IMG/VR virus record: IMGVR_UViG_3300033153_010441
Span: 1 to 60,818 of that record
DNA length: 60,818 bases
Origin: a virus
Lineage: Duplodnaviria; Caudoviricetes
Reading direction: 5' to 3' (one strand)
The notes beneath the pieces were generated by a model. It had not been told where the DNA came from and ran no database searches. It worked only from the letters and a program-made list of their open reading frames with translations. Of the stretch, positions 1 through 60,818 are shown piece by piece (within the stretch, counting starts at the first letter, position 1; every line of letters begins with the position of its first letter). Both the position numbers and the translations under genes were made by a program.

Positions 1-207
1 CCAGGCGGTCAAGGGTGCCTTGAAAGCCTAAGCCCCGCCGGTCCGCGACACAACCGGCAACCAAGGGCCTGGCGGATTTTTTCGCGACTGAACAAGACGC
101 CCGGGCCCGCTTTTTTCCTGCCAGAATTACCGTCTGTTTCTTGCAGCCTTCGCTGCTTCTTCCTTGCTGTCAGTATTGGTAGCTTTAAGTAATTTTTGGG
201 AAAAAGT

Positions 208-236
208 TTGACAATTCCTGGGGGTAAGGTTAGTCA
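208..236 (+). promoter_or_regulatory. Probable host sigma70 promoter of the interrupted regulator gene
   Basis: TTGACA (208-213), 17 bp, TAGTCA (231-236) upstream of GGAGG (283-287) and ATG 299; the -10 is weak. Confidence 0.4.
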
Positions 237-262
237 AACTTTCTCATATTGCCGTTTTTCAA

Positions 263-673
263 CTACCTCGTGCGGCTTATTGGGAGGCCCCCGCCACCAT
301 GAAACGACTCTTGTCCACCAAAGAAAACAAAAAAAGGCAACCCACCAGAATCGTGGTGGATTGCCTTCATTGAGAGGTTATCAGATAAGTTATATTTAAA
401 TACAGTTGGCATAGGTCTGATTAAACTGAGCCAGATGCAAAAACCTGTGATGCCAGTGAAAGCAATACGGAAAAGATTTTTATTCGACTGTTCCAATTTT
501 TCCACCCTCTCATCCAATGTCTGGAGTTGATTGGTGTTACGAACACATCGGGGAAAACCTTCGCCCTGGCTAAAATTATTTAGCATCCTTTTTAAATCTT
601 CAATCCTACGATCAGTATTTCCTGTTCGCTCGTCAATCCTGACGAGCATATCTTGCATTTGTTCAGGTGTCAA
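263..673 (-). CDS. Coiled-coil plus transmembrane protein (XhlA/holin-like); reading frame crosses attL
   Basis: Likely TTG start at 673 after GGAGG; MLVRIDERT...LDERVEKLEQ coiled coil followed by hydrophobic LFRIAFTGITGFCIWLSLI. Confidence 0.55.
   Translation of the reverse strand: MTPEQMQDMLVRIDERTGNTDRRIEDLKRMLNNFSQGEGFPRCVRNTNQLQTLDERVEKLEQSNKNLFRIAFTGITGFCIWLSLIRPMPTVFKYNLSDNLSMKAIHHDSGGLPFFVFFGGQESFHGGGGLPISRTR
299..325 (+). pseudogene. Original 5' end (MKRLLSTKE) of the host HTH/PBP regulator, separated by prophage insertion
   Basis: GGAGG then ATG AAA CGA CTC TTG TCC ACC AAA GAA; joins in frame to the sequence after attR; in the lysogen it runs into phage DNA and stops at 371-373. 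Confidence 0.85.
314..324 (+). repeat. attL core TCCACCAAAGA
   Basis: Identical 11-mer at 60325-60335 and 60353-60363. Confidence 0.9.
325..367 (-). terminator. Intrinsic terminator at end of the leftward (late) operon, possibly bidirectional
   Basis: AAGGCAA-c-CCACCA gaatcg TGGTGG-a-TTGCCTT hairpin; A-rich tract 325-335 gives a U tail on the minus strand. Confidence 0.7.
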
Positions 674-849
674 CTGAATATTTCCTCCGCCCACCCCTGG
701 TGGGCCTTGCACCAATCTGTCGCCTGTACGAGTGGCCACCGGCCCTCGTCGGCGGCGGTGAGTACCGGTGGGTCATGGCGGCACTCACCACTACCGTCCC
801 CCATGTCGGAAAACCACATACACGAGGCGCAGCATGGTTTAATTATCAA
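670..849 (-). CDS. Small Cys-rich putative metal-binding protein, 59 aa (not in ORF track)
   Basis: Manual translation from TTG: MIIKPCCASCMWFSDMGDGSGECRHDPPVLTAADEGRWPLVQATDWCKAHQGWAEEIFS; same motif pattern as 58325-58531. Confidence 0.7.
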   Translation of the reverse strand: MIIKPCCASCMWFSDMGDGSGECRHDPPVLTAADEGRWPLVQATDWCKAHQGWAEEIFS

Positions 850-3800
850 GTTTATCCTTTACCCTTTTCAAAAGTTTCGTGATAATCATGTTGCGTCGTT
901 CATTCAGCGCCCGGATTTTTTCCAGTTTTTCTTCCGGGGTTAATCGACGATTCTGCCGAATCAACTTCTTTCGTGTATTAATTTCCCGCAACATCTGTCG
1001 ATGCGAGGATAGCTGCTGCCGGACTTGGAGTTTCCGTTTGTTGGCATCCCGGTATGCTTTTGCTTCGGCTTTGCGGCCCGGCTTGTTGAGGCTATTGAAT
1101 GTGTTGTAGATTTGATCCAACTCCTTCATCAGATCATAATATTCCCCAACCACTCGCGGGGTCTGCACCTTACGTTCAGCCAGTAGCCGTGACGGCAGCC
1201 AGAATTTCTGATTGACCGTGGTAGCAGGATCTTCGGGAAAATCCTCAATATACGGGATAACAATCTGATCAATAGCCAGCAGGGAAATTTGTCCTGCAAA
1301 GGCACCACCCTGCTTAATTAGATGGTCAATCTGCTTGGGACTAAGTTTCATTCCTTCGAAGGGTGCATTTTTTAAGGCTTTGCTCAGTACCCTTGCGGTC
1401 TTACTGGTTCGCTCATCCCATCGCTCGAATGGTTCTTTTTCCCGGTCCCATGGTGTTTCAATATCCTGGCCGGTGAAGCTGTTACGATTCGTCCACCACA
1501 CATCCACAATAGTGTCCAAGCTACCCGCCGGGTTAATCTCCAGGGTTTGACCAAGAGAATGAAGCACGAATCTTTTCATATCTTCGCCAGTGGCGTGTTG
1601 CTGAACAAATGTTTCGTAGATCATGGCAGGTGCTGCAAAGAACATCATACCCACCTCAAAAGGCATGGGGATTTTCAGCCGGTTACCGTCCTGGGTTTTG
1701 ATTGGTGTGTAAATATAGCTCCAGCGCTGGTACCAAGGGAGCTTATTATACTCATCCCGGTCGTCATCCAACTCGCTGTTATAGGCGTGGAGGAGGATTG
1801 ATGCAGCGGTCATCAGCGCCGCGCCGCCCCAAAATCGCACAGCAGCGGCTTTATCCTTTTGAAAAGGATTGGCGGCCCGACCCATTTTATAAATGCCCTG
1901 AAGCCGGGCATTCAAGAATGGAACGTAGGCCACCATGAATCGGGTGATGGCACCTTTCCCAGTAAGACTAAAGTCCATTAGATCCTTAGCATGAAATGCT
2001 GCTTCGGCGCGGGATGTGCCCTTGGCCCGGAGATTCTGATAGATGGCCAGACGGTTGGCTGATTCTGCGGCACGACCAAGGCGTTGATACTCATGCCACC
2101 AACGGCGAGGATCAATAAAATTCTTCTCGCTCCATTCACCCTTACGGGTACGGTTGATGGTTTTACTGATGTTGGTCTTACTCATCTTGTCATAGCCACC
2201 AGCAAACAACCCACCAGCGGCAAGTGCTTCGTTGACCAACTCCGGGTGCCGATAAAAAGCGTACAGCCCTTTAACTGAGTCAATGATAGGGGTAATTCCC
2301 TTACCCATCAAGGGAGCAGCCAATGTATCACGTATGAAGTTGGCCACCTGAAAGGCTGGCGCTATGGTGACACTCCAGGTTCGCAGATGCTTCAGGCTCC
2401 GAAGTACCTTCATTACGACATGATTGGCAAACGGATTATCCAGATCAATAAGAGACTCCATAAGGAACTTATCCTTGACCCGGAAGTATTTCCGTTTACC
2501 ACTTACCCTGAAAGCAACCACATCTTTAGGAATACCCTTGGCTGGGTCGAACTTGGGATTTGCTTCAACAAGATCCGTTCCACGGAAAAATCCGTAGAAC
2601 TTAGTATAACTGATGTTCTTCAGGCTTTGCTCAATGATATAGCTGTAGTTGGCCATTAACGACTCCATCGGGTCAGCAATATTACTTTTGCCTCCCTTTA
2701 GTCGTTTGATGCTACCTACTATATTTTCCCCAGGATCTGTGGGAAACATCTCTTTTAGAATACCCTCATTATGATCCTCGAAAACACGATTCAGTGGCGC
2801 ATAGATGGAACGTGACCACAATTCGTAGTCACCGACAAACCCGGCCTGCTTGGCAAACTCCAGGACTGCCTTGTTGTACCTTTCCAGGTGATTTATGAAT
2901 TGGTCAAACTGATTCTTGTTGTTGGCGTACCATTGGTCCGTGGCGGCAAGAATTTCTGCCGTCTTAGTTCGAGGATCGATCCAGTCGCCATTTTCGTCCT
3001 GGCCATACAACTTACTGGCAATGCGTTGCGCTTCCTTACCATCCTTGCGCTTCGCCACCATGGTGGCCAGTTCCTTCTTCAGACGACTCTTTTCTTTACG
3101 GTCCTTAGTGTTGTTAATAGCTTTTTCCAGACGGCGTTTTTCCTGCTGGAAAAATTTCTCGTCCATCACCTTGGCATCTGCTCGCTCCAACAGTTCTTTA
3201 ACTGATAGGGCCAGCAACCGGCCCTTCGCTATCTTGTAGTCGGCCCCATTCTTAAACATCTTGGCTGCGGCCAACAGGCCACCCTTCATTGGTTCAAGGG
3301 TAACCCAATGACTTTGCTGATCATACTTTGGTAAGCCATGATGAAAAATGGTACCGATCATATCGCTGGCGGTGGACATAAGCCGGAACGAGGTGTACGC
3401 GGACAACTCTGGGGGAACGTCCGTTTGATCCTCGTAAAGCTTCATGGCCGCCCGGCGGTCGAATATGTTGGATTGGAGATTGCGTGGCCTGAACACATTT
3501 AGGAGCGAATCACCGATGCGCTTGCCTGTAGTCTTAAATTGATCCATGATCGATTGATCATCAGACAAGTGGATGTTAGAAAATGCTTCTTCAGTAACAG
3601 CGTCCAAGGCAGTTTTTTTATAGCGTACAGGCTGCGCCGCCGAGGCCATATATCGAATGGCACGGCGGGTTTGTTTGTTAGTACGTCGTAGGTGCGCGTC
3701 CTTAACGCGCTCCAAAAGCAGATCAATATCCTCCTTAGTAAAACTATCCCGGATGCCAAGTTTCTTTAAGAGCCAATTCATTAGGGCTTTAAATCGATTA

Positions 3801-6800
3801 ATTACAAGATTACGTTTACCTAATGAAAGATTCTCTGCACGGCCAGCCACAATCTCTTCAGCAATGTAGCGCTGACGCTGCTGTTCTGTTTCCAGCGCCG
3901 CCAACTCAGAAGCATAGTTTTTCCGTAGGGGGGCAATCACGCTTTGATCATCCTTAAACAAGTTCCACACCTTATCCAGGAATGAATCGAAGGCAGCTTG
4001 CCCATCCGGGTGAACAGCGTCAAACCAATCCCGCAGCTTGCCGTGACCCACCGCTTCATGCAGCCAGAAGCGGATTAAGTCCTTGGGCTTACTAAGCCGG
4101 TCGGTGTTAATCCAAATATCATTACCATCAATAATGGCATCAGACGCAGGATTAAGATGCGCCGGAGGGGGGTTGTCCTTATCAAACAAATGCACCCGGC
4201 GGTCACTAATTTTATTCAACTCGCGCACAGCATCATCCGCAAAATTTTTCATACGGAGGTTTGCTGGCGCAGTAGTGCTGGATTTACGGTTGCGAACCTC
4301 TTCCTTAAACCCATAGGTGTTGGTCTTGGCTTCAGCGTCACTAATCAATTCCGGTGCGCCAAGGCGCTTCCAACCCTTATACGCCACTGGCTTTTGAATT
4401 TCACCACCGGGCAGATAAAAGGTTCCTTCCTTAATGGCCAATTTCTGGATGGACTTCAACCGTTCAATCTCAGATTTAACCGTTGATAGCACATCCTTCC
4501 GAGGCATATAAAATACACGATCTGTGGATTGCAGATCCGCCACCTGTAGGTTTTTGCCTTTGGCTTTTTGCTTCTTGATGTATGCATCCTGATCAACCAG
4601 ATAAATTACATCATTTGGCCACCGAATATCCTTAATAGCAATTCGGTCAGATTTGCCTTCTTTAAAATATCTCTGGTATGTATTAATCAAGGATATGCTT
4701 TTGCCAACAACATCATACAGAACCTTCGAAAGAGATTCAGCGACAGGGTCAACTTGCTTCTTACGCTTAACATTATTAAAGAAAGCCAGCATCGGCCCTG
4801 CTGTCTTTGGCATACCGTCGTCGCCGAGTTTCCAGATATTGCCTTGATCATCAACGGCTTTATCGGCAAAAGCAGTAAAGCAACCACCATAATGCAAAGC
4901 ACATTGGCGACAAGACCCAAGATAACTCCGTTCGTCGGCGTCACAAGGACAGGATCTACGCCGGGCTTCAACCGGCAACCCATCATGCAAATCTTTGCCT
5001 GTGGACAAAATTAATCCTAAAGCATCCTCTTCAATGAGTTGCTCAATAAAAGGCAGATCTGACACATCACGATACAAAAAAGCATTATTAATGCCGTAAT
5101 CACGCAGGTTCTTTTTAAGATAATCAATTCCGTAATACTTTACTAAGTCAGAATCAAGTGACCCCATTTTAATAAAAGGGGCTTGTTTGGTGCCCTTAAG
5201 TTTCCGTAGGTTATCATGATGCCGGGAAAAGATATGAATGGGCCGGTCTGCATGTTGAGCCAAAACGTTAAAAGCTCGCACTACTTCGTCACTGGTCAGG
5301 TCACCAGAACCAAGCAACCGAATGAAAGGAAGCTGAGTCTTTTTGTAGGTCTTTGCTTCAGCGGCAACTCGTTTGCCAAAATGATCCGGGTCTACAATAA
5401 TATGAATGGAATTACGCAGAGCCTTTCTTACGGTGGACATTCGCGCCATACTGGCCGCTGCGTAACACTCTTGACATGGCACAGTAGGCTGGCAAAAGCC
5501 CAGGATTAGATCAACCAAAGCGGTTGCTTTACCATTATCGGATAAGATCCTTTTACCCTTTGCATCCACATCAAGAAACAATGGACCAGAGCGAAGATCC
5601 TTCACCTCATCCAGGAATTTCTTTCGCTCGGTGCCGGTTAAACCACGCTCATCAGCCAGCGTTTCCGGGTTAATCTTCGGGTCAACCAATCGCTGCAAGC
5701 GCCCATCATCCCGCGCTGCAAACAATGCCTCACCCAAATCCCTGGCCCTGATAGAACGGGCCGGGGGACGCTTACCTGTTTTAGGATCTATTTTGCCTGG
5801 AAGTTCCTCGGCCTTTTCCAGCGGACCGAGAAGTCTTTCAATTATTTCCAGTTCTTTACCCAAACGGTTATTAATTGTTCCAAAAATATCCAGCTGCTGA
5901 GGAACAGCTTCCCACTTCTGCGCGTCTAATTGATATTGAATATCATTATCAACCTGACCAATAACTAAATCACCAAGTGGGGTTTGGTTCCTTTTACGGA
6001 CTGCCTCTCGATTCCAGACCCGGCCAGATTTAATTTCTCGTATGGTCGATTCAGCCGTGGGCCGAATGATATGCATGATGCGCCGGAAAAAATCCCGGAT
6101 CTTCTCAAAGTAACCACCCGGTTCATGGCCATCCCAATTAGCATACGCCTCGGCACGCTGTTCAGCGTTGCCGTAGCGCTTCTCCATGGCTGCAATCTCA
6201 CGATCCGTGAGTACCATCGCTTCGGCAGCGTGATATGTTTCGTGGCGAAGAGTTTTGACACCAGCGCCCTTGGCCAGGGAAATAACGCCGTCCAGGTCAA
6301 ATGCACCAGCAGCCGTCTCCTCGTCGCCTACCTCGCGCCCGTAGGCGCGGCTCGCCACTTCGGGGTCCACCTGGATATTTGCGTCACGAGTAATGGTGAT
6401 CTTAGCACCGGCGGGGGTGGTTACTTCAAAACCCGTGTCCGTTTCGGTTACATTGGTATTAGGCAGTTCACGCTTCACCGTGTCTATGGTAACTGGTGTA
6501 TCAGTAGTCTCTTTGTTGAGAGAATATTTAGTGCCCGTTTTCCTTTTAGGTGCGATGGCCCATTCTCCAGTGGTCAGTTCCACCGGACGAAACTTTTCCG
6601 GGCTACCAAACTTCCGAATGGCCCGTTTGGCACTTTCCTTGTTCGAGTAGCGCCGGTCCTTAAGAGGTATAGGACGTCGAGCGGCATGGGTTTGGCCATG
6701 CGTAGACACGTCGCCTTCCGTTTCGCCTGGGGTAGCGTCGCGAAAATTTCGCCACTCCCGTGGTGACTGCTGCTCCAATTCTTCTGGCAACTCGTCCAGG

Positions 6801-9370
6801 GCGGCGCGTACATCATTACGACGCGCCCGACGCACCTCGTCTGTTACCTGACGATCCGCTTGGCGTTTCAACTCCAATGCCGCCTTACGGCGCTTATTCA
6901 TCTCATAGCGCTTGCGAATATCCGCTTCCTGGGCTGCTGTTACTGGAGTGTTGGGCAGCACTCCTGCCTTACCACCACGCTCCAGATCCTCCAACAGGGC
7001 CGCATCCATCGCCTCGCGGCCCACGGTGCGCTTCTTGCCCTGTAAGGGAATATCACGAGTATCAGGAGCGACGATCTTACCACCTGTTGCCTTGGTGTAA
7101 TCTTCCGGCGACAACATTGTAAGGGGTTGCGAAGGACGATAGTTTTTAGCCTTCTCTGATGCCGTCTGCGGGTCGATCACCTTCCCGCCAAGGGTAAGAC
7201 CCCTGTCAGATTTTTCAGGCGCTGGAAGTGACGCTATATCGCCCTTCTGGGCCATACGCTGCTCAAACGCAGACAATTTCTTGCCCAACTTTTTTTCTGT
7301 ATCCCGCCGGGCAATCTCAGCGGTAACCCGCTTCTGCTGTTCCATGTCCTGCTGGACACGTTGGGCTACCTGTTTTTTTCTATCCAATATTTCATTTAAA
7401 TTAAGAGACAGAATATGCACCATGGCAAGCGGGTTAAACTGAGCACCCGGCTGGACGCCATCTTGGCTCACCTCGCGTAACGACTCAAGACGATATAGCA
7501 CATCATTGATCTTTTCCGGCTTTACGCTGGAAGGATCTTTGCTGATCATGCTGATAGTCTTGTGTGCTTCACTGATAATGTTCGCTGCCTGTCTTAGGTT
7601 GGCATCCTTAGCCTTACCAAACTGCCAACCAAATTTATTAGCCATTGCCATGGTACCCGGCTCAGTACTGGTTACCTCAAGGAAATACTGAAACCGATCA
7701 CGGTTGGCTGCAGCATAGTCGGCAGGTGCCTGCCGAGGATCTTGTATTGGGGAAGATCGACGACTTTCATCAGCAGCCTGCGCCTCAATCTCAGCCTGCC
7801 GTGCTTGCGCCCGTAGTTGCTGTAACTCAGAATTAATTTTCTGTAATTCCGCGATAGCAATCTTTTCCATCTCGGAATTACCATTGGCACGAGCATCTTC
7901 AGCGGCCTTATTAAGTAATTCATAACGCTCCTGCAGTTTACCAAGGGCTGCATGAAGACGCTCTTCAGGACCAGGACCTGGAGGTTGCGTCGGGGGCAGT
8001 TGCGGACCCTCGGTAACTTGTTCAGGAGCCGGGCCTTCGGTAATTTGCTCTTCCTTGTCAGCAAAATCCTGGTCAACTCCAGTCACCGCCTGGATGTTGC
8101 CACCAGTATTAATAGGTTTATTGATTACTTCAACCTTAGTTGTATCTGTTTGACCAGTTCGATTCAGCACCCGCTTGGCGCTGCCATAAGTCTTGGACAA
8201 ACCTACGTGGCCAGCACTGGTTCCAGCAGACATAATACTTTCAAGCATGGCATCAGAAATATCTGCCTCACCAAAAGCAGCTAAGGAACCAAGTGCTTCT
8301 CCGGCACCCTCACCAACAGTTTCAAGACCAAAAGCAGCAGTATGCTGCAGACCCTGGGCCATTTTCCCAGGAGTCGCCTTTAAAGCTGCATCCTTTGCAG
8401 CAATAAACGCCTTCTTAGCCAAGTCCTTATTGGTTTTCAGGGCCGTATCAACAGCCTTGCGGCTGGTAATATCCACACCCTCATCTGCCAAAGTCTTGAA
8501 AAGAGCCTTTTCAGCAGCCTTACCGGGTGCGCCGAGCATCCACTTTGATAACCCCATAGTCAAAGCGTCCACACCAGTGATAACAGCACCCTTCTTAAGC
8601 CCAGCCTTTAGTGCTTCACCATGATCGTATTGACCAGACTGCGCTTGCTCCGTGGCAATAGCACCCGTTTCAAGGGCAGTATTACCCAAGAACAGACCAC
8701 CAACACTGCCCAAGAGCGTTGCGGCAGCACTACCCCCGGCAAGTATGGAGCCACCTGCTCCACCAGCCACCATGGCACCCATGACAGGCAGAGACATAGT
8801 AGCCGTACTGACCGCTTCATGGAATGCACCCTCCGGTTCGGATATAATAGCGGAAGTAATATCCTTAACCTTTTCCCACCAGGAGGTGTCCTCTGTATCA
8901 TCACTACGGCGTTGGGCCAGTTCGGCAGCAAACCTACGCTGGGCGCTGGTCTGCTCAATAGCAGCAGCTTCCTTGGCAAGCCGGGCAACGTCCTCGTCGT
9001 CACCTGTGGCTACATTCCAGGCAGTCTGCGCCATATTGGAGGCACGCTTTAAACCCTGCTTACCACTTTTCCAAATGCCACTAATAAAACCCTCATCCTC
9101 ATTTTCAAGAGCATCAGGAGTCGCCGGAGATACTTCAGACATAGATACATCATCTTGTATATCCCTGTATGCCTGCAAAAGAGGGTCATCAACCATTGCA
9201 CCAGTATTGGAACTGGTATTGTCCTTCCCAAAAATATCCTGGTAGGCTCTAAGCAACGGATCACCCGCTGCGTCAGCTTCAACAGCACCACTATCAGCGA
9301 CGGACAGGTCCTCAACGGGACGCTTACGCCTTTCTTCCAGTACCTCAGCCAACAAAGTATTGTAATCCAT
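839..9370 (-). CDS. Giant virion ejection / large polyvalent protein (2843 aa): Gly/Ala-rich N-terminal membrane-type region, two zincin-like motifs, GP88/radical-SAM-like Cys domain, C-terminal LPD38-like domain
   Basis: Last large gene of virion module; HETYH (~6230-6244), HEAVGH (~4043-4060), CQPTVPCQECYA (~5460-5494), C-terminal YVPFLNARLQG...KIPMPFEVG...SPKQIDHLIK. Confidence 0.8.
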   Translation of the reverse strand: MDYNTLLAEVLEERRKRPVEDLSVADSGAVEADAAGDPLLRAYQDIFGKDNTSSNTGAMVDDPLLQAYRDIQDDVSMSEVSPATPDALENEDEGFISGIWKSGKQGLKRASNMAQTAWNVATGDDEDVARLAKEAAAIEQTSAQRRFAAELAQRRSDDTEDTSWWEKVKDITSAIISEPEGAFHEAVSTATMSLPVMGAMVAGGAGGSILAGGSAAATLLGSVGGLFLGNTALETGAIATEQAQSGQYDHGEALKAGLKKGAVITGVDALTMGLSKWMLGAPGKAAEKALFKTLADEGVDITSRKAVDTALKTNKDLAKKAFIAAKDAALKATPGKMAQGLQHTAAFGLETVGEGAGEALGSLAAFGEADISDAMLESIMSAGTSAGHVGLSKTYGSAKRVLNRTGQTDTTKVEVINKPINTGGNIQAVTGVDQDFADKEEQITEGPAPEQVTEGPQLPPTQPPGPGPEERLHAALGKLQERYELLNKAAEDARANGNSEMEKIAIAELQKINSELQQLRAQARQAEIEAQAADESRRSSPIQDPRQAPADYAAANRDRFQYFLEVTSTEPGTMAMANKFGWQFGKAKDANLRQAANIISEAHKTISMISKDPSSVKPEKINDVLYRLESLREVSQDGVQPGAQFNPLAMVHILSLNLNEILDRKKQVAQRVQQDMEQQKRVTAEIARRDTEKKLGKKLSAFEQRMAQKGDIASLPAPEKSDRGLTLGGKVIDPQTASEKAKNYRPSQPLTMLSPEDYTKATGGKIVAPDTRDIPLQGKKRTVGREAMDAALLEDLERGGKAGVLPNTPVTAAQEADIRKRYEMNKRRKAALELKRQADRQVTDEVRRARRNDVRAALDELPEELEQQSPREWRNFRDATPGETEGDVSTHGQTHAARRPIPLKDRRYSNKESAKRAIRKFGSPEKFRPVELTTGEWAIAPKRKTGTKYSLNKETTDTPVTIDTVKRELPNTNVTETDTGFEVTTPAGAKITITRDANIQVDPEVASRAYGREVGDEETAAGAFDLDGVISLAKGAGVKTLRHETYHAAEAMVLTDREIAAMEKRYGNAEQRAEAYANWDGHEPGGYFEKIRDFFRRIMHIIRPTAESTIREIKSGRVWNREAVRKRNQTPLGDLVIGQVDNDIQYQLDAQKWEAVPQQLDIFGTINNRLGKELEIIERLLGPLEKAEELPGKIDPKTGKRPPARSIRARDLGEALFAARDDGRLQRLVDPKINPETLADERGLTGTERKKFLDEVKDLRSGPLFLDVDAKGKRILSDNGKATALVDLILGFCQPTVPCQECYAAASMARMSTVRKALRNSIHIIVDPDHFGKRVAAEAKTYKKTQLPFIRLLGSGDLTSDEVVRAFNVLAQHADRPIHIFSRHHDNLRKLKGTKQAPFIKMGSLDSDLVKYYGIDYLKKNLRDYGINNAFLYRDVSDLPFIEQLIEEDALGLILSTGKDLHDGLPVEARRRSCPCDADERSYLGSCRQCALHYGGCFTAFADKAVDDQGNIWKLGDDGMPKTAGPMLAFFNNVKRKKQVDPVAESLSKVLYDVVGKSISLINTYQRYFKEGKSDRIAIKDIRWPNDVIYLVDQDAYIKKQKAKGKNLQVADLQSTDRVFYMPRKDVLSTVKSEIERLKSIQKLAIKEGTFYLPGGEIQKPVAYKGWKRLGAPELISDAEAKTNTYGFKEEVRNRKSSTTAPANLRMKNFADDAVRELNKISDRRVHLFDKDNPPPAHLNPASDAIIDGNDIWINTDRLSKPKDLIRFWLHEAVGHGKLRDWFDAVHPDGQAAFDSFLDKVWNLFKDDQSVIAPLRKNYASELAALETEQQRQRYIAEEIVAGRAENLSLGKRNLVINRFKALMNWLLKKLGIRDSFTKEDIDLLLERVKDAHLRRTNKQTRRAIRYMASAAQPVRYKKTALDAVTEEAFSNIHLSDDQSIMDQFKTTGKRIGDSLLNVFRPRNLQSNIFDRRAAMKLYEDQTDVPPELSAYTSFRLMSTASDMIGTIFHHGLPKYDQQSHWVTLEPMKGGLLAAAKMFKNGADYKIAKGRLLALSVKELLERADAKVMDEKFFQQEKRRLEKAINNTKDRKEKSRLKKELATMVAKRKDGKEAQRIASKLYGQDENGDWIDPRTKTAEILAATDQWYANNKNQFDQFINHLERYNKAVLEFAKQAGFVGDYELWSRSIYAPLNRVFEDHNEGILKEMFPTDPGENIVGSIKRLKGGKSNIADPMESLMANYSYIIEQSLKNISYTKFYGFFRGTDLVEANPKFDPAKGIPKDVVAFRVSGKRKYFRVKDKFLMESLIDLDNPFANHVVMKVLRSLKHLRTWSVTIAPAFQVANFIRDTLAAPLMGKGITPIIDSVKGLYAFYRHPELVNEALAAGGLFAGGYDKMSKTNISKTINRTRKGEWSEKNFIDPRRWWHEYQRLGRAAESANRLAIYQNLRAKGTSRAEAAFHAKDLMDFSLTGKGAITRFMVAYVPFLNARLQGIYKMGRAANPFQKDKAAAVRFWGGAALMTAASILLHAYNSELDDDRDEYNKLPWYQRWSYIYTPIKTQDGNRLKIPMPFEVGMMFFAAPAMIYETFVQQHATGEDMKRFVLHSLGQTLEINPAGSLDTIVDVWWTNRNSFTGQDIETPWDREKEPFERWDERTSKTARVLSKALKNAPFEGMKLSPKQIDHLIKQGGAFAGQISLLAIDQIVIPYIEDFPEDPATTVNQKFWLPSRLLAERKVQTPRVVGEYYDLMKELDQIYNTFNSLNKPGRKAEAKAYRDANKRKLQVRQQLSSHRQMLREINTRKKLIRQNRRLTPEEKLEKIRALNERRNMIITKLLKRVKDKLDN

Positions 9371-49956: not shown

Positions 49957-50058
49957 TTACCTATTTTGGGTTGCCAGTAAGGTTGAATCGAAAACTCAAG
50001 CAGCCATTCTTCGCCGCGCAGCGGCGATTATTTTATTGCAAGAAAAGGAGCAATCAAA

Positions 50059-53723: not shown

Positions 53724-55634
53724 ATGGATACTTATCAAAAATTTATTCACCAACGTACTTACGCCCGGTGGAATGAGGCCGCCGGGCGTCGTGAAAGTTG
53801 GGATGATAGCGTAGATCGTGTTGGAAGATTCTTTATTAAACTGGCAAACAAGCTTACAAATGATGACAAGTTCCATGGTACATTACATGATGCTATGGAA
53901 CTAATCCGCTCCCAGGAAATTGTCCCCAGTATGAGGGTATTCTGGACTGCTGGTCCCGCCCTGGAGCGGGAGCATCTTGCCGGTTACAACTGTGCTGCGG
54001 TAGCCATTAATTCATTGATGGTATTACCGGAAATTCTGTATATTTTAATGAATGGTACTGGGGTTGGGTTTAGTGTTGAATCACAATTCGTGCAGCAGAT
54101 TAAACCCTTGCCCAGTAAATTTTCCAAAAGTAAAAAAACAATTATTTTTGAAGACAGTAAACAAGGCTGGGCCGAAGGGTACAAGCAGATAATCCAAACC
54201 CTTTATGATGGATATATTCCGCAATACGATACCAGCCAGATTCGGCCTAAGGGGGCTATCCTGAAAACGTTTGGTGGCAGGGCCAGTGGCCCTGAGGCGT
54301 TGATCAACCTGATTGAAACGACCATTAAGGCCATCATTGATCAGAAGGGTGCGCCATTACGCCCTGTCCAGGTGCATGATTTGGCGTGTGCTGTACTGAG
54401 TGCCGTAGTTGTCGGCGGTGTCCGACGGGCGGCGGGTATTAGTCTCAGCGACCTGGGTGACCTGGAGATGGCCCAAGCTAAAACTGGCGAATTTTGGCAC
54501 AATTATCCACAACGAGTCATGACTAATAATAGTGCCGTATATAACACCCGCCCCGCTCCGGGGGTTTTCCTCCAGGAATGGATTAACCTGATCCGCAGTA
54601 AGAGCGGAGAACGTGGGATTTTCAACCGCGAGGCGGCGAACTTCACCGTGGCCCGGACCTTTCGGCGAAAGGTTGGTTACGATTGGTTGTGCAATCCCTG
54701 CGGGGAGGTTGTCCTGCGCCCTGATGGTGGTCTGTGTAATCTTACCGAGGTGGTTATTCACCCTGATGACACCCTGTCATACCTGTGTGATAAGATTACC
54801 CACGCCACCCTGCTGGGGGTGCTTCAATCCACGTTAACGAAATTTAATTTCGTGAATAAAAACTGGCGGCGAAACGCCGAGGAAGAACGGCTGCTGGGTG
54901 TCAGCTTGACCGGACTAATGGATCACCCGGTGCTGCAGCGTGTTAGTAGTGATGCGCGGCTGTGGCTCAAACATATGAAGCAGGCCGCCCTGGATGCAGC
55001 ATCAACCTTCAGTAAGACTGTTGGTATTTCTATGCCCATGGCGGTAACGTGCCTCAAACCCAGTGGCTCAGTTTCACAACTCTGTAATACTGCAAGCGGA
55101 TTGCATCCCAGGTATAGTGATTATTACATCCGTCGAGTGAGAGTTACAGCAACAGATCCGTTGGCGCATTATCTAATAGATAAGGGCGTGCCACATCATC
55201 CTGAAGTTGGTGAGGATCATTTACCTACACCACATACTTGGGTATTTGATTTTCCCCTTAAATCACCAGAGGGTGCTGTAACCAAGGATCAACTTAGTGC
55301 AAAAAAACAACTGGATTATTGGAAGATGATCCAGACGCACTGGTGTGAGCATAATGCATCCTGCACAATCTATGTCGGCGATGATGAGTGGCCGACGGTA
55401 GCTGCCTGGGTCTACAACAACTGGAATACAGTTGGAGGCTTATCATTCCTGCCACGTTCTGACTCAGTATATCAACTGGCACCTTATGAAGAAATTACAG
55501 CAGAACAATATATGGATCTTACTAAGTCTTTTCCTGATGACTTGGATTTTAATGACTTGGCAACCTATGAAGCAGAAGACTATACCACAGGTAGCCAAGA
55601 ACTTGCCTGCACAGGAGGTGCCTGCGAACTATGA
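53724..55634 (+). CDS. nrdJ: Class II (B12-dependent, monomeric RTPR-type) ribonucleotide reductase
   Basis: PSMR, YNC, GTGVGFS, VGGVRR, NPCGE, KPSGS, C-terminal ACTGGACEL; no small subunit gene. Confidence 0.9.
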   Translation: MDTYQKFIHQRTYARWNEAAGRRESWDDSVDRVGRFFIKLANKLTNDDKFHGTLHDAMELIRSQEIVPSMRVFWTAGPALEREHLAGYNCAAVAINSLMVLPEILYILMNGTGVGFSVESQFVQQIKPLPSKFSKSKKTIIFEDSKQGWAEGYKQIIQTLYDGYIPQYDTSQIRPKGAILKTFGGRASGPEALINLIETTIKAIIDQKGAPLRPVQVHDLACAVLSAVVVGGVRRAAGISLSDLGDLEMAQAKTGEFWHNYPQRVMTNNSAVYNTRPAPGVFLQEWINLIRSKSGERGIFNREAANFTVARTFRRKVGYDWLCNPCGEVVLRPDGGLCNLTEVVIHPDDTLSYLCDKITHATLLGVLQSTLTKFNFVNKNWRRNAEEERLLGVSLTGLMDHPVLQRVSSDARLWLKHMKQAALDAASTFSKTVGISMPMAVTCLKPSGSVSQLCNTASGLHPRYSDYYIRRVRVTATDPLAHYLIDKGVPHHPEVGEDHLPTPHTWVFDFPLKSPEGAVTKDQLSAKKQLDYWKMIQTHWCEHNASCTIYVGDDEWPTVAAWVYNNWNTVGGLSFLPRSDSVYQLAPYEEITAEQYMDLTKSFPDDLDFNDLATYEAEDYTTGSQELACTGGACEL

Positions 55635-55822
55635 TACTAAAAAATATTCTTGGGATACTTACCGTGGCGCTACTACTCATTCTACCAGCGCTCGGCGTTG
55701 GGTACGTCATTGCCGCCGTGTGGACAATTCTTCACATGATCAATTTAAAGTTGCTGTTGATCATCAGCGCTATGGTTTACACTTTTACCTGGATTATGAT
55801 CATTTTAGCATCGACCCGGTAA
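55631..55822 (+). CDS. Putative holin (small membrane protein)
   Basis: Almost entirely hydrophobic 63 aa directly before lysozyme-like gene. Confidence 0.55.
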   Translation: MILKNILGILTVALLLILPALGVGYVIAAVWTILHMINLKLLLIISAMVYTFTWIMIILASTR

Positions 55823-55824
55823 CC

Positions 55825-56307
55825 ATGTCATTCAATCCAGAGCAGTTTCGGGAATTGATCGTTAATGTCCTAAAATATCTTGAGCCGGAAATACCATACA
55901 GTGATACGGCGGTCGAGCTTCTCATGCTCACCGCCGCTACTGAATCTAACCTGGGCCAATATCTCAGACAAGTACGTGGCCCTGCCCGAGGTGTATTTCA
56001 GATGGAACCTCGTACTGAACAAGATATTTGGAATAACTATCTTGTTTATAATGAAATGTTGAAAAACAAAATTGAGGGATTGTTATTCATATATAACCAT
56101 GCTGACAAAGGTTTTCCTGATATGATTGGTAACCTTCCATATCAGATTGCTATGGCACGAGTTTACTACTGGCGTGTTCCTCACCCGCTACCCAACAGCA
56201 ATCCAGTAGCGTTAGCTACCTATTGGAAGCAGCATTACAACACACATCTGGGCGCTGGAACAATTAATAAAGCAAAGGAAAAGTATAAAGAATATACGAG
56301 AGGTTAA
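55825..56307 (+). CDS. Putative endolysin, lysozyme-like fold
   Basis: LLMLTAATES...GPARGVFQMEP...YWKQHYNT; real start ATG 55825. Confidence 0.75.
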   Translation: MSFNPEQFRELIVNVLKYLEPEIPYSDTAVELLMLTAATESNLGQYLRQVRGPARGVFQMEPRTEQDIWNNYLVYNEMLKNKIEGLLFIYNHADKGFPDMIGNLPYQIAMARVYYWRVPHPLPNSNPVALATYWKQHYNTHLGAGTINKAKEKYKEYTRG

Positions 56308-56309
56308 AC

Positions 56310-56567
56310 ATGAATAATAGTCAATTGGTGGACCATCCACCCCATTATACTTCTGGTAAAATCGAAACGTGGAATTGGATTGAATTGGGGATGACTGATG
56401 ATGAATTTCGTGGGTACTGCAAGGGGAACATTTACAAGTATCTCCAGCGCTACCATATGAAGGGCGGATTACAGGATCTTGATAAAGCCATGGCGTACAT
56501 CAAACGACTGCGGCAGTTTGAAATGGAGATAGACCAACTGAGGGAAGGCGACAATAGTGTGTCTTAG
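56310..56567 (+). CDS. DUF3310-family protein
   Basis: VDHPPHYTSGKIE...GYCKGNIYKYLQR...DLDKA. Confidence 0.88.
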   Translation: MNNSQLVDHPPHYTSGKIETWNWIELGMTDDEFRGYCKGNIYKYLQRYHMKGGLQDLDKAMAYIKRLRQFEMEIDQLREGDNSVS

Positions 56568-57456
56568 GAGCAGTTACATTTCCCCAACGGGGAAGGTAAG
56601 TGAAACAATTTATTTTTCAAACAAATATGCTGACATAGATTTTTCCAAGGCGCGAAAAATCAGAGAAACGCCGGGCGTTGTTAGCCCGGCGTATTTATTT
56701 CCTGGGGGTCATGCTGTTGCAACAGAAGACCTATTAGTGCCATGGTTGTTGCGTGGTTCCCTTGGAGCCAGCATATTTTCAATATCCCTCCCCAGGCGCA
56801 TTAGAAAACTAAACCCCCGTATTTCATATTCATTGCCGGTCAATATATCAACAGAATTAAAAACAGTACATGATGCGCCCTGGCTTACCAAACAGGTTCG
56901 TAGAACATTACATAAATGTGTTCAAACATACTGGCCAGAGTATACAATTTACTTGTTACAGGATAAAACCAACCAACGTAGGTTGGCGATTAAACTGGAT
57001 AGCCCACAATGGGCCAATTTGATCTTTGATTACTTTGGTGATGATCCTATTTGCGCCCAAACGACAGCGGGGTTGGAATTTATTCGTGCAGTGCGATTTA
57101 TTGAAGCAGTAATGGATGCGTGTCGTGCTGCAATAATGCATAATATTATTATGCGCTACTGTCTGTATGGGCCTATTAACTGTCATGGTGTTCATCATCT
57201 TGGTACTTTAACACACACCCCCTACGGAGGGGGACTTGTTTTCCTTCATCTAAGTAATACCACTCGTGTTTATCAAGGTTCTATTCTTTTACTTCTCGAT
57301 GCTCCTAAAGGACCGATGATTGTTACAGGTGAAGATGGAGATAATTATTTCTGGCGTACAGCCCCACAGTCTGTGGGTCCTGCCGATAACCCAACCATCC
57401 AATTACATCAATACCTAAAAATTCAAGGGGTGATTCAACAATGTCGAAAATCGTAA
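56557..57456 (+). CDS. Degenerate RtcB-fold protein lacking catalytic residues
   Basis: Collinear resemblance to RtcB blocks (see findings). Confidence 0.65.
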   Translation: MCLRSSYISPTGKVSETIYFSNKYADIDFSKARKIRETPGVVSPAYLFPGGHAVATEDLLVPWLLRGSLGASIFSISLPRRIRKLNPRISYSLPVNISTELKTVHDAPWLTKQVRRTLHKCVQTYWPEYTIYLLQDKTNQRRLAIKLDSPQWANLIFDYFGDDPICAQTTAGLEFIRAVRFIEAVMDACRAAIMHNIIMRYCLYGPINCHGVHHLGTLTHTPYGGGLVFLHLSNTTRVYQGSILLLLDAPKGPMIVTGEDGDNYFWRTAPQSVGPADNPTIQLHQYLKIQGVIQQCRKS

Positions 57457-57986
57457 AGTTAGTTAGTTCAGAATTGAAAGTTTCCGTAGATATTGGAACA
57501 CAGCGTTTTTTGAACAATGTGCGTAAATCGCGTATTGCTAATCACATGAGTAAGGGTGATCCTGTTGAGTGCGAGATTACCAGCTACCGTGGTGAGCTGG
57601 CGGTAGCGAAGGCTCTTAATCTGTTTCCTGATCTAACAACCTTTAATCGGACTGGTGGGTACGACTTGGTGACCCAAGATGGTCTGCGAATTGATGTAAA
57701 AACTACCAGCTATAAAAATGGCAATTTGGTTATTAATTCCAAAAAAGACCCAACACAAAGTGATGTGTATGTGCTGGTCAGAGCATTGGCGCCCAACGCA
57801 TATGAAATTGTTGGCTGGGAATATACCAGCATTGTTCACTCAGATATTTATTGGACTGATAGCCTGAAGAGCAAAGGTGGTGGTTGGTTTGTTCCTGCAG
57901 ATCATCTTAAATCAATTAATAGTCTTTTGAAAAAGGAGGAGGATAATAATGGCGAAGAAAAAGAAGAAAGCAACGAAGGGCATTAA
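57441..57986 (+). CDS. Putative PD-(D/E)XK nuclease
   Basis: GELAVAK...GYDL...IDVKT...DVYVLV...IVGW. Confidence 0.65.
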   Translation: MSKIVKLVSSELKVSVDIGTQRFLNNVRKSRIANHMSKGDPVECEITSYRGELAVAKALNLFPDLTTFNRTGGYDLVTQDGLRIDVKTTSYKNGNLVINSKKDPTQSDVYVLVRALAPNAYEIVGWEYTSIVHSDIYWTDSLKSKGGGWFVPADHLKSINSLLKKEEDNNGEEKEESNEGH

Positions 57987-58332
57987 TACAGAAGAATATC
58001 AGCGTTTGTTGGCCGAAGCAGCAAAAAATGATTACCGATGCAGTGTGTGCGGTTATAATGATCTTCCCATTGGGCTGATGCCGAAGGGTGGTCTTATTTG
58101 TGCTGCATGCCTATCTCAGATGGCCATGCCCAAGGAGCATTTCAAGGAATTTGATGCGGAAAAGGCTGATGACGAAAAGTGGCAGGAAGTACGAAACAAT
58201 GTAACATACTATGATCCTGATCTGGATTGGTACAGATACATTGTAAACGATAAGGTGGTTGACGCCACACGTCAATCTTTTGGTCGGTGGTTGAGAGAAT
58301 TATCTGAGGAGAGGGGGGCTGATAATGACTAA
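57949..58332 (+). CDS. Zinc-finger hypothetical protein
   Basis: CSVC...ICAAC; GGAGG RBS. Confidence 0.6.
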   Translation: MAKKKKKATKGINTEEYQRLLAEAAKNDYRCSVCGYNDLPIGLMPKGGLICAACLSQMAMPKEHFKEFDAEKADDEKWQEVRNNVTYYDPDLDWYRYIVNDKVVDATRQSFGRWLRELSEERGADND

Positions 58333-58531
58333 GGATAATTGGAAGCATAGGTCAACTGAAATGCGCTGTGGTACGTGCATGTACTTTGTTGAAAAGGTTA
58401 CTCCTGTTGTGCAGCAAGTTGATCGTCTGATTGGCCGTTGTCGCCGCCATGCCCCTACCATGAGCGGGTGGCCAGTAGTTTTCTCGGACGATTGGTGTGG
58501 TGATCACAAGCTGGATGAAACAAAACTATAA
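58325..58531 (+). CDS. Small Cys-rich putative metal-binding protein
   Basis: CGTCMYF...GRCRRHAP...WPVVFSDDWCGDH. Confidence 0.7.
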   Translation: MTKDNWKHRSTEMRCGTCMYFVEKVTPVVQQVDRLIGRCRRHAPTMSGWPVVFSDDWCGDHKLDETKL

Positions 58532-58546
58532 TTCACCAAATAAGAC

Positions 58547-58585
58547 GCCCCCACCAGCCGAAGCTGGTGGGGGTTTTTCTTTTTT
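58547..58585 (+). terminator. Terminator of rightward operon
   Basis: GCCCCCACCAGC cgaa GCTGGTGGGGGT followed by T tract. Confidence 0.85.
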
Positions 58586-58645
58586 CAAAGCCTAATGCTA
58601 AGGTTTTTGGATTATTTTGGTGTGACCTATAGGAAGATATGGACT

Positions 58646-58864
58646 ATGGAAATTACACGCCCGTTGAAAGCAATTAGACAATATTGTCTTGATTGCAGCG
58701 CTGGAAGCCCATCTGAGGTTAGAAAATGTGTCATTGAGAATTGTCCACTGTACCCGTTCCGTTTTGGTAAGAATCCGTTTCGTAAAGGCAGGGTCCTGAC
58801 TCCTGCAGAAAAGCAGCTTGCCCGCGAAAAAATGATGCGGCTGCGTGAGCAGGGAAAACTTTAG
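58646..58864 (+). CDS. Small CxxC protein
   Basis: PLKAIRQYCLDCSAGSPSEVRKC...CPLYPFRFGKNP. Confidence 0.75.
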   Translation: MEITRPLKAIRQYCLDCSAGSPSEVRKCVIENCPLYPFRFGKNPFRKGRVLTPAEKQLAREKMMRLREQGKL

Positions 58865-58876
58865 CTCCCAAAAGGA

Positions 58877-58915
58877 AAGCCCCTCACCAGCCGAAGCTGG
58901 TGGGGGGCTTTTTTT
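58877..58915. terminator. Probable bidirectional terminator between CxxC gene and integrase
   Basis: AAGCCCC-CACCAGC cgaa GCTGGTG-GGGGCTT with T tract; converging genes. Confidence 0.85.
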
Positions 58916-60307: not shown

Positions 60308-60363
60308 TAAATCTAAGGAACCTCTCCACCAAAGATAAATCTAAGGAACCTCTCCACCAAAGA
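60308..60363 (+). repeat. attR region: exact 28-bp tandem duplication, each copy ending in the att core
   Basis: TAAATCTAAGGAACCTCTCCACCAAAGA at 60308-60335 and 60336-60363. Confidence 0.95.
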
Positions 60364-60818
60364 GGCGGCCCAGTTCCTGGGCGTCAATGAGAAGATGGTC
60401 TACACCCTGGTGTCCGAAAAGGGGCTGCCGGCTACCAAGATCACCGGCAAGTGGCTCTTTCCCATTCACCTGCTCGAGCAGTGGGTGGAGACCCATACCA
60501 TCAACTATCCTGAGGCCCGGGGCAAGCTGCCGCCCTACGAGGGACTGCTGGTCATCGCCGGCAGCAACGACCTGCTGCTCGACAAGGCCATCCAGTTGTT
60601 CAACACCCGCTACCGGGAACACTTGGCCGTGTTCGGCAACCTCGGCAGCATGGGCGGTCTGCGGGCCCTGCGCCAGGGCCTCTGCCACGTGGCTTCCAGC
60701 CACCTGCTGCAGGAAAACGGTGAGGAGTACAACTTCGAGTTCGCCCACCAGGAGTTCGATCGGGTGCCGGTGGTGGTCAATTTCTGCCGCCGTGAGCAGG
60801 GGCTGATGCTCGCCAAGG
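60350..60818 (+). pseudogene. Body of interrupted host regulator: excisionase-type HTH plus PBP-like (molybdate-binding type) domain; runs off window
   Basis: Manual translation LSTKEAAQFLGVNEKMVYTLVSEKGLPATKITGKWLFP...LVIAGSNDLLL...GSMGGLRALRQGLCHVASSHL...RREQGL; GC-rich host-like codons. Confidence 0.88.

Follow-up and report, generated by a model that had tools for sequence, protein, structure and literature searches.

A temperate-phage open reading frame that probably descends from the RNA ligase RtcB and keeps none of its catalytic residues

The closest described counterparts of the gene considered here are the RNA ligases of the RtcB family (PF01139), such as those of Escherichia coli (b3421) and Pyrococcus horikoshii. 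We compared them with an open reading frame (ORF) of a temperate phage, carried by the IMG/VR virus record IMGVR_UViG_3300033153_010441, a stretch of 60,818 bp (CheckV completeness 91%) that was analyzed at its full length and is called the window below. For the E. coli enzyme, we take the two-Mn2+ site to comprise Asp75, Cys78, His168, His185 and His281. A study on the P. horikoshii protein places the His-GMP intermediate at H404 and names D95 and H203 as Mn ligands (PMC3973293). The ORF is collinear with RtcB over 238–241 columns, and the family motifs GVDIGCG, GNHFIE, HSGSRG, the long helix, NCHHN, RKGA, IPGSMG and FIVRG find their places in it in the same order and with the same spacing. 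However, E. coli RtcB comprises 408 amino acids while the ORF has 299, and the C-terminal 74 residues of the enzyme stand against 32 unrelated ones. The ORF furthermore lacks a Pfam match and lies, in the functional sense, outside the enzyme family.

Phage-borne RtcBs are common, since tblastn with a bacterial query detected them in 408 of 50,697 phage records at 27–47% identity. Examples are the protein of Proteus phage Privateer (QIN94896.1) and the 'tRNA splicing ligase' of mycobacteriophages, which are carried by phages as the ORF is. The short Privateer-type RtcB (333 aa) is the best pairwise match of the ORF (E 0.007, ORF residues 45–114), and among single RtcB subgroups a phage-only profile fits best (score 29.1). 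Nevertheless, all phage RtcBs (10 of 10) and Privateer-type proteins (16 of 16) retain every catalytic residue, whereas the ORF retains none, and while phage RtcBs are found by tblastn, the link of the ORF to RtcB becomes significant only by hhalign. Conceptually, the prozymes of trypanosomatid deoxyhypusine synthase and S-adenosylmethionine decarboxylase (AdoMetDC) are comparable, being enzyme-derived proteins without catalytic residues whose genes stay open. However, experiments have shown those prozymes to work together with an active paralogue of their own cell, whereas the only active RtcB near the ORF is that of the host. An RtcB pseudoenzyme or dead RtcB homologue was not found in a literature search that excluded subscription journals and supplements, nor in titles and abstracts on RtcB in connection with phage anti-defence.

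The ORF product probably descends from RtcB. In its favor are the probabilities given by hhalign, the outcome of the empirical nulls, the extent of the alignment, a score that increases with more diverse profiles, and the fact that phages often carry RtcB. A narrow profile of 26 E. coli-type RtcBs gave a probability of 8.4% over 37 columns, which is close to a result of 'not RtcB' and was overturned only by diverse profiles. Such a diverse set was built because the faint BLAST matches to two distinct RtcBs had proved collinear in position. With 27 sequences (ten RtcBs of phages and archaeal viruses, nine of the host phylum and eight of E. coli type; pairwise identity 27–90%), hhalign reached a score of 29.6 over 171 columns (ORF residues 26–198), equalled by one of 200 shuffles and by none of 79 natural proteins. 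Once 11 divergent RtcB paralogues had been added, the resulting 38-sequence profile delivered a score of 44.6, a probability of 81% and an E-value of 1.2e-5 over 241 columns (residues 24–269); neither the 120 shuffles (maximum 25.5) nor the 105 natural or reversed proteins (maximum 26.5) attained it. Any one of three added divergent subsets was sufficient for scores of 39.5, 39.7 and 41.1. Further inclusion of 16 Privateer-type short RtcBs, giving 54 sequences, led to a score of 43.6 and a probability of 78.7% (0 of 100 shuffles as good), while hhalign on the stored alignments of the 54 RtcBs returned 62.1% and an E-value of 7.5e-5 over 238 columns. Across these diverse profiles of 38–54 sequences, scores ranged from 39.7 to 44.6. 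The identity between the ORF product and RtcB is about 17%, and the subgroups taken alone score 29.1 (phage), 22.2 (E. coli-type), 22.9 (Privateer-type), 16.4 (long bacterial) and 12.5–19.0 (divergent paralogues). A close relationship to one particular RtcB subgroup was considered as well and rejected, as no subgroup alone scores above 29.1. If segments of the ORF are aligned alone, the N-terminal and the middle one both fall on the RtcB columns where they are expected, with 4 and 2 of 60 shuffles, respectively, doing as well. By profile–profile comparison along the domain, common descent with RtcB is found at moderate strength, short of proof.

The aligned register shows where the ORF departs from the enzyme (Table 1). 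Sixteen residues are kept in 53–54 of the 54 RtcBs, the exception being one truncated fragment: D48, H50, D75, C78, N167, H168, H185, R189, H281, R298, K299, H337, R341, R345, Y380 and K381, the last five from H337 to K381 (H337, R341, R345, Y380, K381) being invariant in 54 of 54. In the ORF, D75 corresponds to S68, C78 to A71, N167 to E128, H168 to Y129, H185 to K146, R189 to P150 and H281 to G211, while L232 and S233 take the places of R298 and K299. Consequently, the two-Mn2+ site is absent, with S68, A71, Y129, K146 and G211 at the Asp, Cys, His, His and His positions. Arg247 of E. coli is retained as R190 in the long helix, and the retained His210 falls on a column that is variable in the family (H, N, A, C, V or P). 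Deleted are the MPDVH loop, the residues after GCG, the LGTLGxG loop before GNHF and a stretch before INCH. The alignment ends at E. coli residue 334, ahead of SHGAGR, and an ungapped continuation would set P270 on His337. The 74 residues that RtcB has beyond this point include SHGAGR with the guanylylated His337, Arg345, Tyr380 and Lys381; neither the guanylylated-His motif nor the C-terminal nucleotide-binding part was found in the ORF, which is also shorter than the full RtcB domain (426 profile positions; 333–480 aa in the sequences seen). Since this set of residues is lost, the protein should be unable to perform the three nucleotidyl-transfer steps, and it is predicted from its sequence to lack GTP/Mn2+-dependent RNA ligation.

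Table 1. Coordinates of the RtcB-like ORF, its aligned motifs and neighboring features in the window
Feature	Position	Strand	Remarks
RtcB-like ORF	56557..57456	+	299 aa, GTG start, TAA stop
RtcB-aligned segment, residues 26–267 (E. coli 24–334)	56632..57357	+	hhalign
S68..A71 in the GVDIGCG columns of the Mn ligands Asp75 and Cys78, both lost	56758..56769	+	hhalign, MAFFT
EYTIYL (128–133) in NHFIEI columns; Asn167 -> Glu, His168 -> Tyr	56938..56955	+	hhalign, MAFFT
AIKLDSPQ (144–151) in MLHSGSRG columns; His185 -> Lys, Arg189 -> Pro; only Ser188 kept	56986..57009	+	
Long helix EFIRAVRFIEAVMDACRAAIMHNII, residues 174–198, against E. coli 231–255	57076..57150	+	best-scoring patch; 2 of 60 shuffles (segment alone)
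INCHG (207–211) in INCHH columns; invariant His281 = Gly211	57175..57189	+	hhalign
MIVTG (254–258) in FIVRG columns (E. coli 321–325)	57316..57330	+	hhalign
C-terminal 32 residues without aligned RtcB counterpart	57358..57453	+	hhalign
Upstream neighbor, DUF3310 protein	56310..56567	+	Pfam E 9.5e-16; 11-nt overlap with ORF
Shine-Dalgarno-like GAGGGAAG/AAGG stretch	56541..56548	+	8–12 nt before GTG, within DUF3310 gene end
Strong hairpin, 9 bp (8 G-C), then ATTTATTT T-rich tail	56668..56692	+	codons 38–46
Downstream neighbor, DUF5843 / phrog_18407 protein	57441..57986	+	Pfam, PHROGs; 16-nt overlap with ORF
11-bp core TCCACCAAAGA	314–324 and 60353–60363		shared by both prophage ends

An earlier note on this DNA, made without database searches, had described the ORF as a full-length but catalytically dead RtcB homologue in an intact frame of 299 codons. 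The position and frame given there are exact, with a GTG start and no internal stop, and all seven peptides that were quoted occur in the ORF (starting at residues 46, 127, 144, 174, 207, 254 and 268). Judging from the profile–profile match and the residue comparison, the central claim of a dead homologue in an open frame, its metal ligands and guanylylated His gone, is probably right. The proposed collinear pairings of YLFPGG.., PEYTIYL with GNHFIE, AIKLDSPQ with MLHSGSRG, the long helix, INCHG with INCHHN and MIVTG with FIVRG are recovered in the same hhalign register, while that of TAPQSVG with SHGAG falls beyond the aligned part. 'Full-length' has to be given up, as 299 residues stand against 408, only E. 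coli 24–334 is aligned with several internal deletions, and the C-terminal quarter is absent. The roles suggested in that note, as an RNA-end binder, an antagonist of host RtcB/RtcR or a decoy, would be no more than candidate functions.

The ORF shows features of a protein-coding gene as well. Its stop-to-stop frame comprises 304 codons without an internal stop, while the other five frames contain 14–23 stops. With 0.059 stops per codon in this region, such a frame would arise by chance with a probability of about 9e-9 for any one start and of about 1e-3 over the window as a whole; the longest open run among 3000 shuffles was 203 codons, and the frame is thus much longer than chance would leave open. 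The GTG at 56557 is the only in-frame start with a Shine-Dalgarno (SD)-like motif upstream, and the location of this motif inside the end of the DUF3310 gene suggests translational coupling of the ORF to that gene. A later start after the hairpin was rejected, because the later in-frame starts ahead of codon 254 all lack an SD-like motif within 12 nt and because the RtcB-like alignment begins upstream of the hairpin. Further signs of coding are weak: among the six frames, that of the ORF has the best codon-usage score, but the value is low, and relative to the large proteins of the phage the product is depleted of D, E, K and A and enriched for C, H, P, I and Y. It is without a hydrophobic segment, and its isoelectric point (pI) is 9.27, while the median of the 54 RtcBs is 6.63 and only three of them reach at least 9. 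The frame is unbroken in the three known variants (299, 299 and 302 aa). That the ORF is, all in one, a real temperate-phage gene, derived from RtcB, non-catalytic and still used, is in our view an evenly poised proposition.

Several observations weigh against this reading, and they are given here together with the explanations they favor. The best-surviving rival is chance resemblance: the ORF would be a lineage-specific ORFan, unrelated to RtcB or arisen de novo, and its alignment a statistical accident of targeted looking. We regard this as the lesser possibility, yet as one that has to be taken seriously. Ordinary searches were empty throughout: the ORF matched no family in Pfam (hmmscan, E ≤ 1), in PHROGs (E ≤ 0.1) or in NCBIfam and PADLOC (E ≤ 10), and a six-frame search of the window with PF01139 (cut-off 27 bits) gave no match, while 10 of 14 control genomes were matched. 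A phmmer search of the PDB at E ≤ 10 returned two irrelevant matches and no RtcB, tblastn against phages at E ≤ 10 returned none, and the viral-contig and species-genome collections were empty as well. From an index of 5.8 billion proteins only the ORF's own cluster of 3 was obtained, from 1.84 billion protein representatives only the ORF protein itself, and from two attempts on the ESM atlas no usable match. Only two other forms of the protein are known, both 98% identical, and the protein collections searched hold no relative beyond this identity. The ESM 'recognition' value of the ORF is 1677, below the 2300 reached by 91% of known families.

Direct comparison with RtcB remained at noise level. 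BLASTP gave best E-values of 0.73 against E. coli RtcB and of 1.1 against the RtcB of a metagenome-assembled genome (MAG) of the host lineage. Smith-Waterman alignment had a z of 0.57 with 77 of 300 shuffles as good, and semi-global alignment a z of 1.22 with 36 of 300. An unfiltered hidden Markov model (HMM) of the 26 E. coli-type RtcBs scored -0.9 bits, matched by 17 of 1000 shuffles and two of 25 unrelated phage proteins, and a HMMER model of the 54 sequences scored -2.3 bits, a value that 53 of 1000 shuffles do as well. The C-terminal third of the ORF alone has no collinear RtcB mapping. Of the 16 residues conserved in the 54 RtcBs the ORF keeps none, and without any invariant residue the alignment has no positive anchor. 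A usable fold model was not obtained: AlphaFold2 reached a predicted local distance difference test (pLDDT) value of 36.5 from the single sequence and 33.5 from a three-row alignment, too low to weigh either way, and a Foldseek search with the pLDDT-36.5 model, meaningless at that confidence, yielded nothing at E ≤ 0.001, RtcB being absent from the matches listed. In addition, hhalign E-values refer to a single comparison and amount to 0.3 to 1.9 if multiplied by 24,736 Pfam models. The enlargement of the profile after a weak match had been seen carries a forking-path risk, and the empirical nulls are limited to 301 natural controls and 420 shuffles at full length, 200 of which belong to the 27-sequence profile, any smaller P being extrapolated.

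However, chance does not readily account for the behavior of the profiles. Two further sets of natural controls, 47 (maximum 27.4) and 149 proteins (maximum 31.3, over 30 columns), contained none that reached the ORF. In total, its score was attained by none of the 301 natural controls and, on the wider profiles, by none of the 220 shuffles, as against the single shuffle among 200 on the 27-sequence profile; a Gumbel extrapolation puts the P of the score at about 1e-4. The best control matches span 5–75 columns, whereas the ORF aligns over its 238–241, and for the N-terminal and central motifs the hhalign register is reproduced by a second aligner (MAFFT --add). The score climbs whichever divergent set is added. 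Against a column-reversed RtcB profile the ORF scores 15.0, against one of ribonucleotide reductase (RNR) 13.1 and against one of periplasmic-binding proteins (PBP) 10.3; with such scores of 10–15 against reversed and unrelated profiles it is not a promiscuous query.

The second rival accepts descent from RtcB and holds that the ORF is a functionless, drifting relic, its open frame a leftover before the first stop. We consider this rather improbable, although variation within the population speaks in its favor. The contigs compared over positions 55400–58900 for single nucleotide polymorphisms (SNPs) come from four metagenome runs, of which three are labelled hydrothermal vent and the fourth marine; the sites are few and the contigs of low depth. 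The ORF carries 19 SNPs and no indels across the four runs, eight synonymous and 11 nonsynonymous, with 3/8/8 at the three codon positions. A synonymous share of 8/19 is indistinguishable from neutral (neutral fraction 0.341, p 0.30). In the flanking DUF3310 and DUF5843 genes together, 11 synonymous changes stand against two others (five synonymous and one stop-loss in the former, six synonymous and one nonsynonymous in the latter), which differs from the ORF (Fisher p 0.028); these two genes are under purifying selection. Crude omega is about 0.71 for the ORF and about 0.09 for the two flanking genes. The nonsynonymous SNPs are not assembly errors, since 7 of the 11 recur in independent protein variants of the European Nucleotide Archive (ENA). 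In line with a relic are as well the atypical composition, the truncated C-terminus, the singleton lineage and the low codon score (0.067; 0.077 if left out of the reference), the latter value being the 13th lowest of 61 unshadowed ORFs and equalled by 9 of 47 shadow ORFs. The earlier note had named neutral decay as an outcome that would speak against a kept pseudo-enzyme, and the population data go part of the way toward it, while the frame is intact.

Drift down to about 17% identity should nevertheless have broken a 300-codon frame repeatedly at 0.059 stops per codon, yet no stop or indel occurs in any variant, and the ORF overlaps tightly with neighbors under selection. Furthermore, 19 SNPs are compatible with moderate constraint, and the 127-aa Zn-ribbon-like gene two genes downstream (57949–58332, + strand) is relaxed too, with three synonymous and five nonsynonymous SNPs. 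The constraint on the ORF is relaxed relative to its neighbors, short of proof of neutrality. Within the same SNP set, the stop codon TAG of the DUF3310 gene reads CAG at 56565 in run X4, which would add 12 codons up to a TGA at 56601; this rests on a single low-depth contig that also has the upstream GTG start of protein variant P0003. No RNA run was listed among the eight runs that hold the sequence.

A terminator-like hairpin inside the ORF is a further point against its being an ordinary gene. It starts 100 nt past the DUF3310 stop and is the only one of its kind in the window. Its folding energy is -23.1 kcal/mol (z -4.5), a stability that none of 200 shuffles attained, and it is a candidate attenuator, terminator or mRNA stabilizer. 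Two other strong + strand hairpins of the early block (50011–50027 and 58547–58574) are intergenic. That the region is no protein gene at all, but a non-coding stretch or RNA element downstream of the DUF3310 gene, as this hairpin with its T-rich tail and the near-neutral substitutions might suggest, is very improbable in view of the single stop-free frame among six, the RtcB-like alignment that starts at residue 24–26 ahead of the hairpin, and the lack of RNA families in the region (no Rfam match at gathering; four at E 0.17–9.5, all far below gathering and none credible; no tRNA gene detected).

If the ORF is a used, RtcB-derived gene, the following course can be envisioned. An RtcB ancestor in a temperate phage of Desulfobacteraceae would have diverged to its present distance from the family and would have lost the active-site loops (MPDVH, GCG, LGTLGxG), the Mn ligands, the guanylylated-His motif and the nucleotide-holding C-terminal quarter. 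The resulting protein could neither self-guanylylate nor seal RNA. It would still be translated, probably coupled to the upstream DUF3310 gene, and act without catalysis; the long frame that stayed open despite the divergence and the packing by overlaps between conserved genes argue for a role other than ligation, while the near-neutral pattern of recent SNPs points to a constraint that is weak now. The likeliest mode would be binding through the remaining RtcB scaffold, and one might guess at a nucleic acid or a host RNA-repair factor as target. Two points suggest binding, the basic pI and the analogy with dead paralogues. Such a protein might cap or sequester 3'-phosphate or cyclic-phosphate ends, or titrate partners of the host RtcB. 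The full proposal, that a temperate phage of sulfate reducers from a vent lineage turned RtcB into a fast-evolving non-catalytic binder of broken RNA ends or of the host RNA-repair machinery, is unlikely as it stands and is put forward tentatively.

The gene belongs to a prophage in its integrated state, flanked on either side by host DNA. The empty site is carried by contig L008 (2647–3424) of a Desulfobacteraceae MAG, which joins window positions 1–324 (L008 2647–2969, 99% identity) directly to 60353–60818 (L008 2959–3424, 100% identity) across the 11-bp core. At the right end of the phage (60309–60363) lies a 27-nt tandem duplication that holds the 11-bp core twice. Integration interrupts a host gene within its initial codons (MKRLLSTKEAAQF...), and one copy carried by the phage would restore a similar N-terminus. 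The phage gene set comprises terminase, portal/adaptor, internal virion protein, DnaB, PolA, exonuclease, class II RNR and a tyrosine integrase-like gene. On the - strand, 839–9370 encode a protein of 2843 aa that could be assigned over its final ~650 residues only, to PHROGs of unknown function (phrog_18222, E 1.7e-65).

Usual partners of RtcB, typical but not defining, namely RtcA (PF01137), archease (PF01951) and tRNA genes, are absent from the window, and so is a paralogue of the ORF (tblastn, best E 1.4); repeats of note were not found in it either. Relatives of the phrog_3108 protein (five loci) and of the RNR (13 loci, 43–46% identity) share no other common neighbor at E ≤ 0.01, and nothing resembling the RtcB-like ORF is present at these loci. 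The DUF5843 neighbor has no relative in the viral or metagenome contig collections, and a 26-nt exact pattern had no match in metagenome contigs. The sole DNA-level match of positions 55400–58900 to a deposited phage is 58429–58518, 90 nt with 76.7% identity to Synechococcus phage S-CBWM1, where the counterpart lies within a hypothetical protein.

An ordinary RtcB is encoded by the host-lineage MAG (588 bits to PF01139), and RtcB is likewise present in 111 of the 121 genomes sampled from the host phylum. Two further observations were made on the RtcBs of these genomes. Twelve matches carry one in-frame TGA, which in the one checked (L103, G094:C29) aligns exactly with Cys78 of GVDIGCG in the context GYDIN-TGA-GVRLL. 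The in-frame TGA at Cys78 suggests natural selenocysteine RtcBs; the Sec98 RtcB of one study was a product of engineering and not of natural origin (PMC4150793). Moreover, three divergent paralogues of 380–404 aa (L144, L145 and L146, from G051, G042 and G046) match the family in two pieces with columns ~72–139 missing, and keep all 16 conserved residues.

Methodologically, the ORF is the case of a gene that every standard annotation route misses and that becomes visible only with a deliberately diverse profile. It is a weakly constrained gene with a near-neutral recent pattern, confined to a single lineage, and it may be on its way to being lost instead of serving as a new tool. RtcB is among the most conserved RNA-repair enzymes, as its 16 key residues are constant across the phage, bacterial and archaeal-virus sequences compared here (n = 54). 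If our reading is true, the RtcB fold would be reusable for a non-catalytic job, and the ORF would be a rare example of a dead repair enzyme kept by a phage. It would then offer a handle on how phages interfere with, or make use of, RNA damage and repair during infection or lysogeny. Under the less likely proposal of a binder of RNA ends or of repair factors, phages would have gained a novel type of tool in the contest in which tRNA and rRNA are cleaved and repaired.

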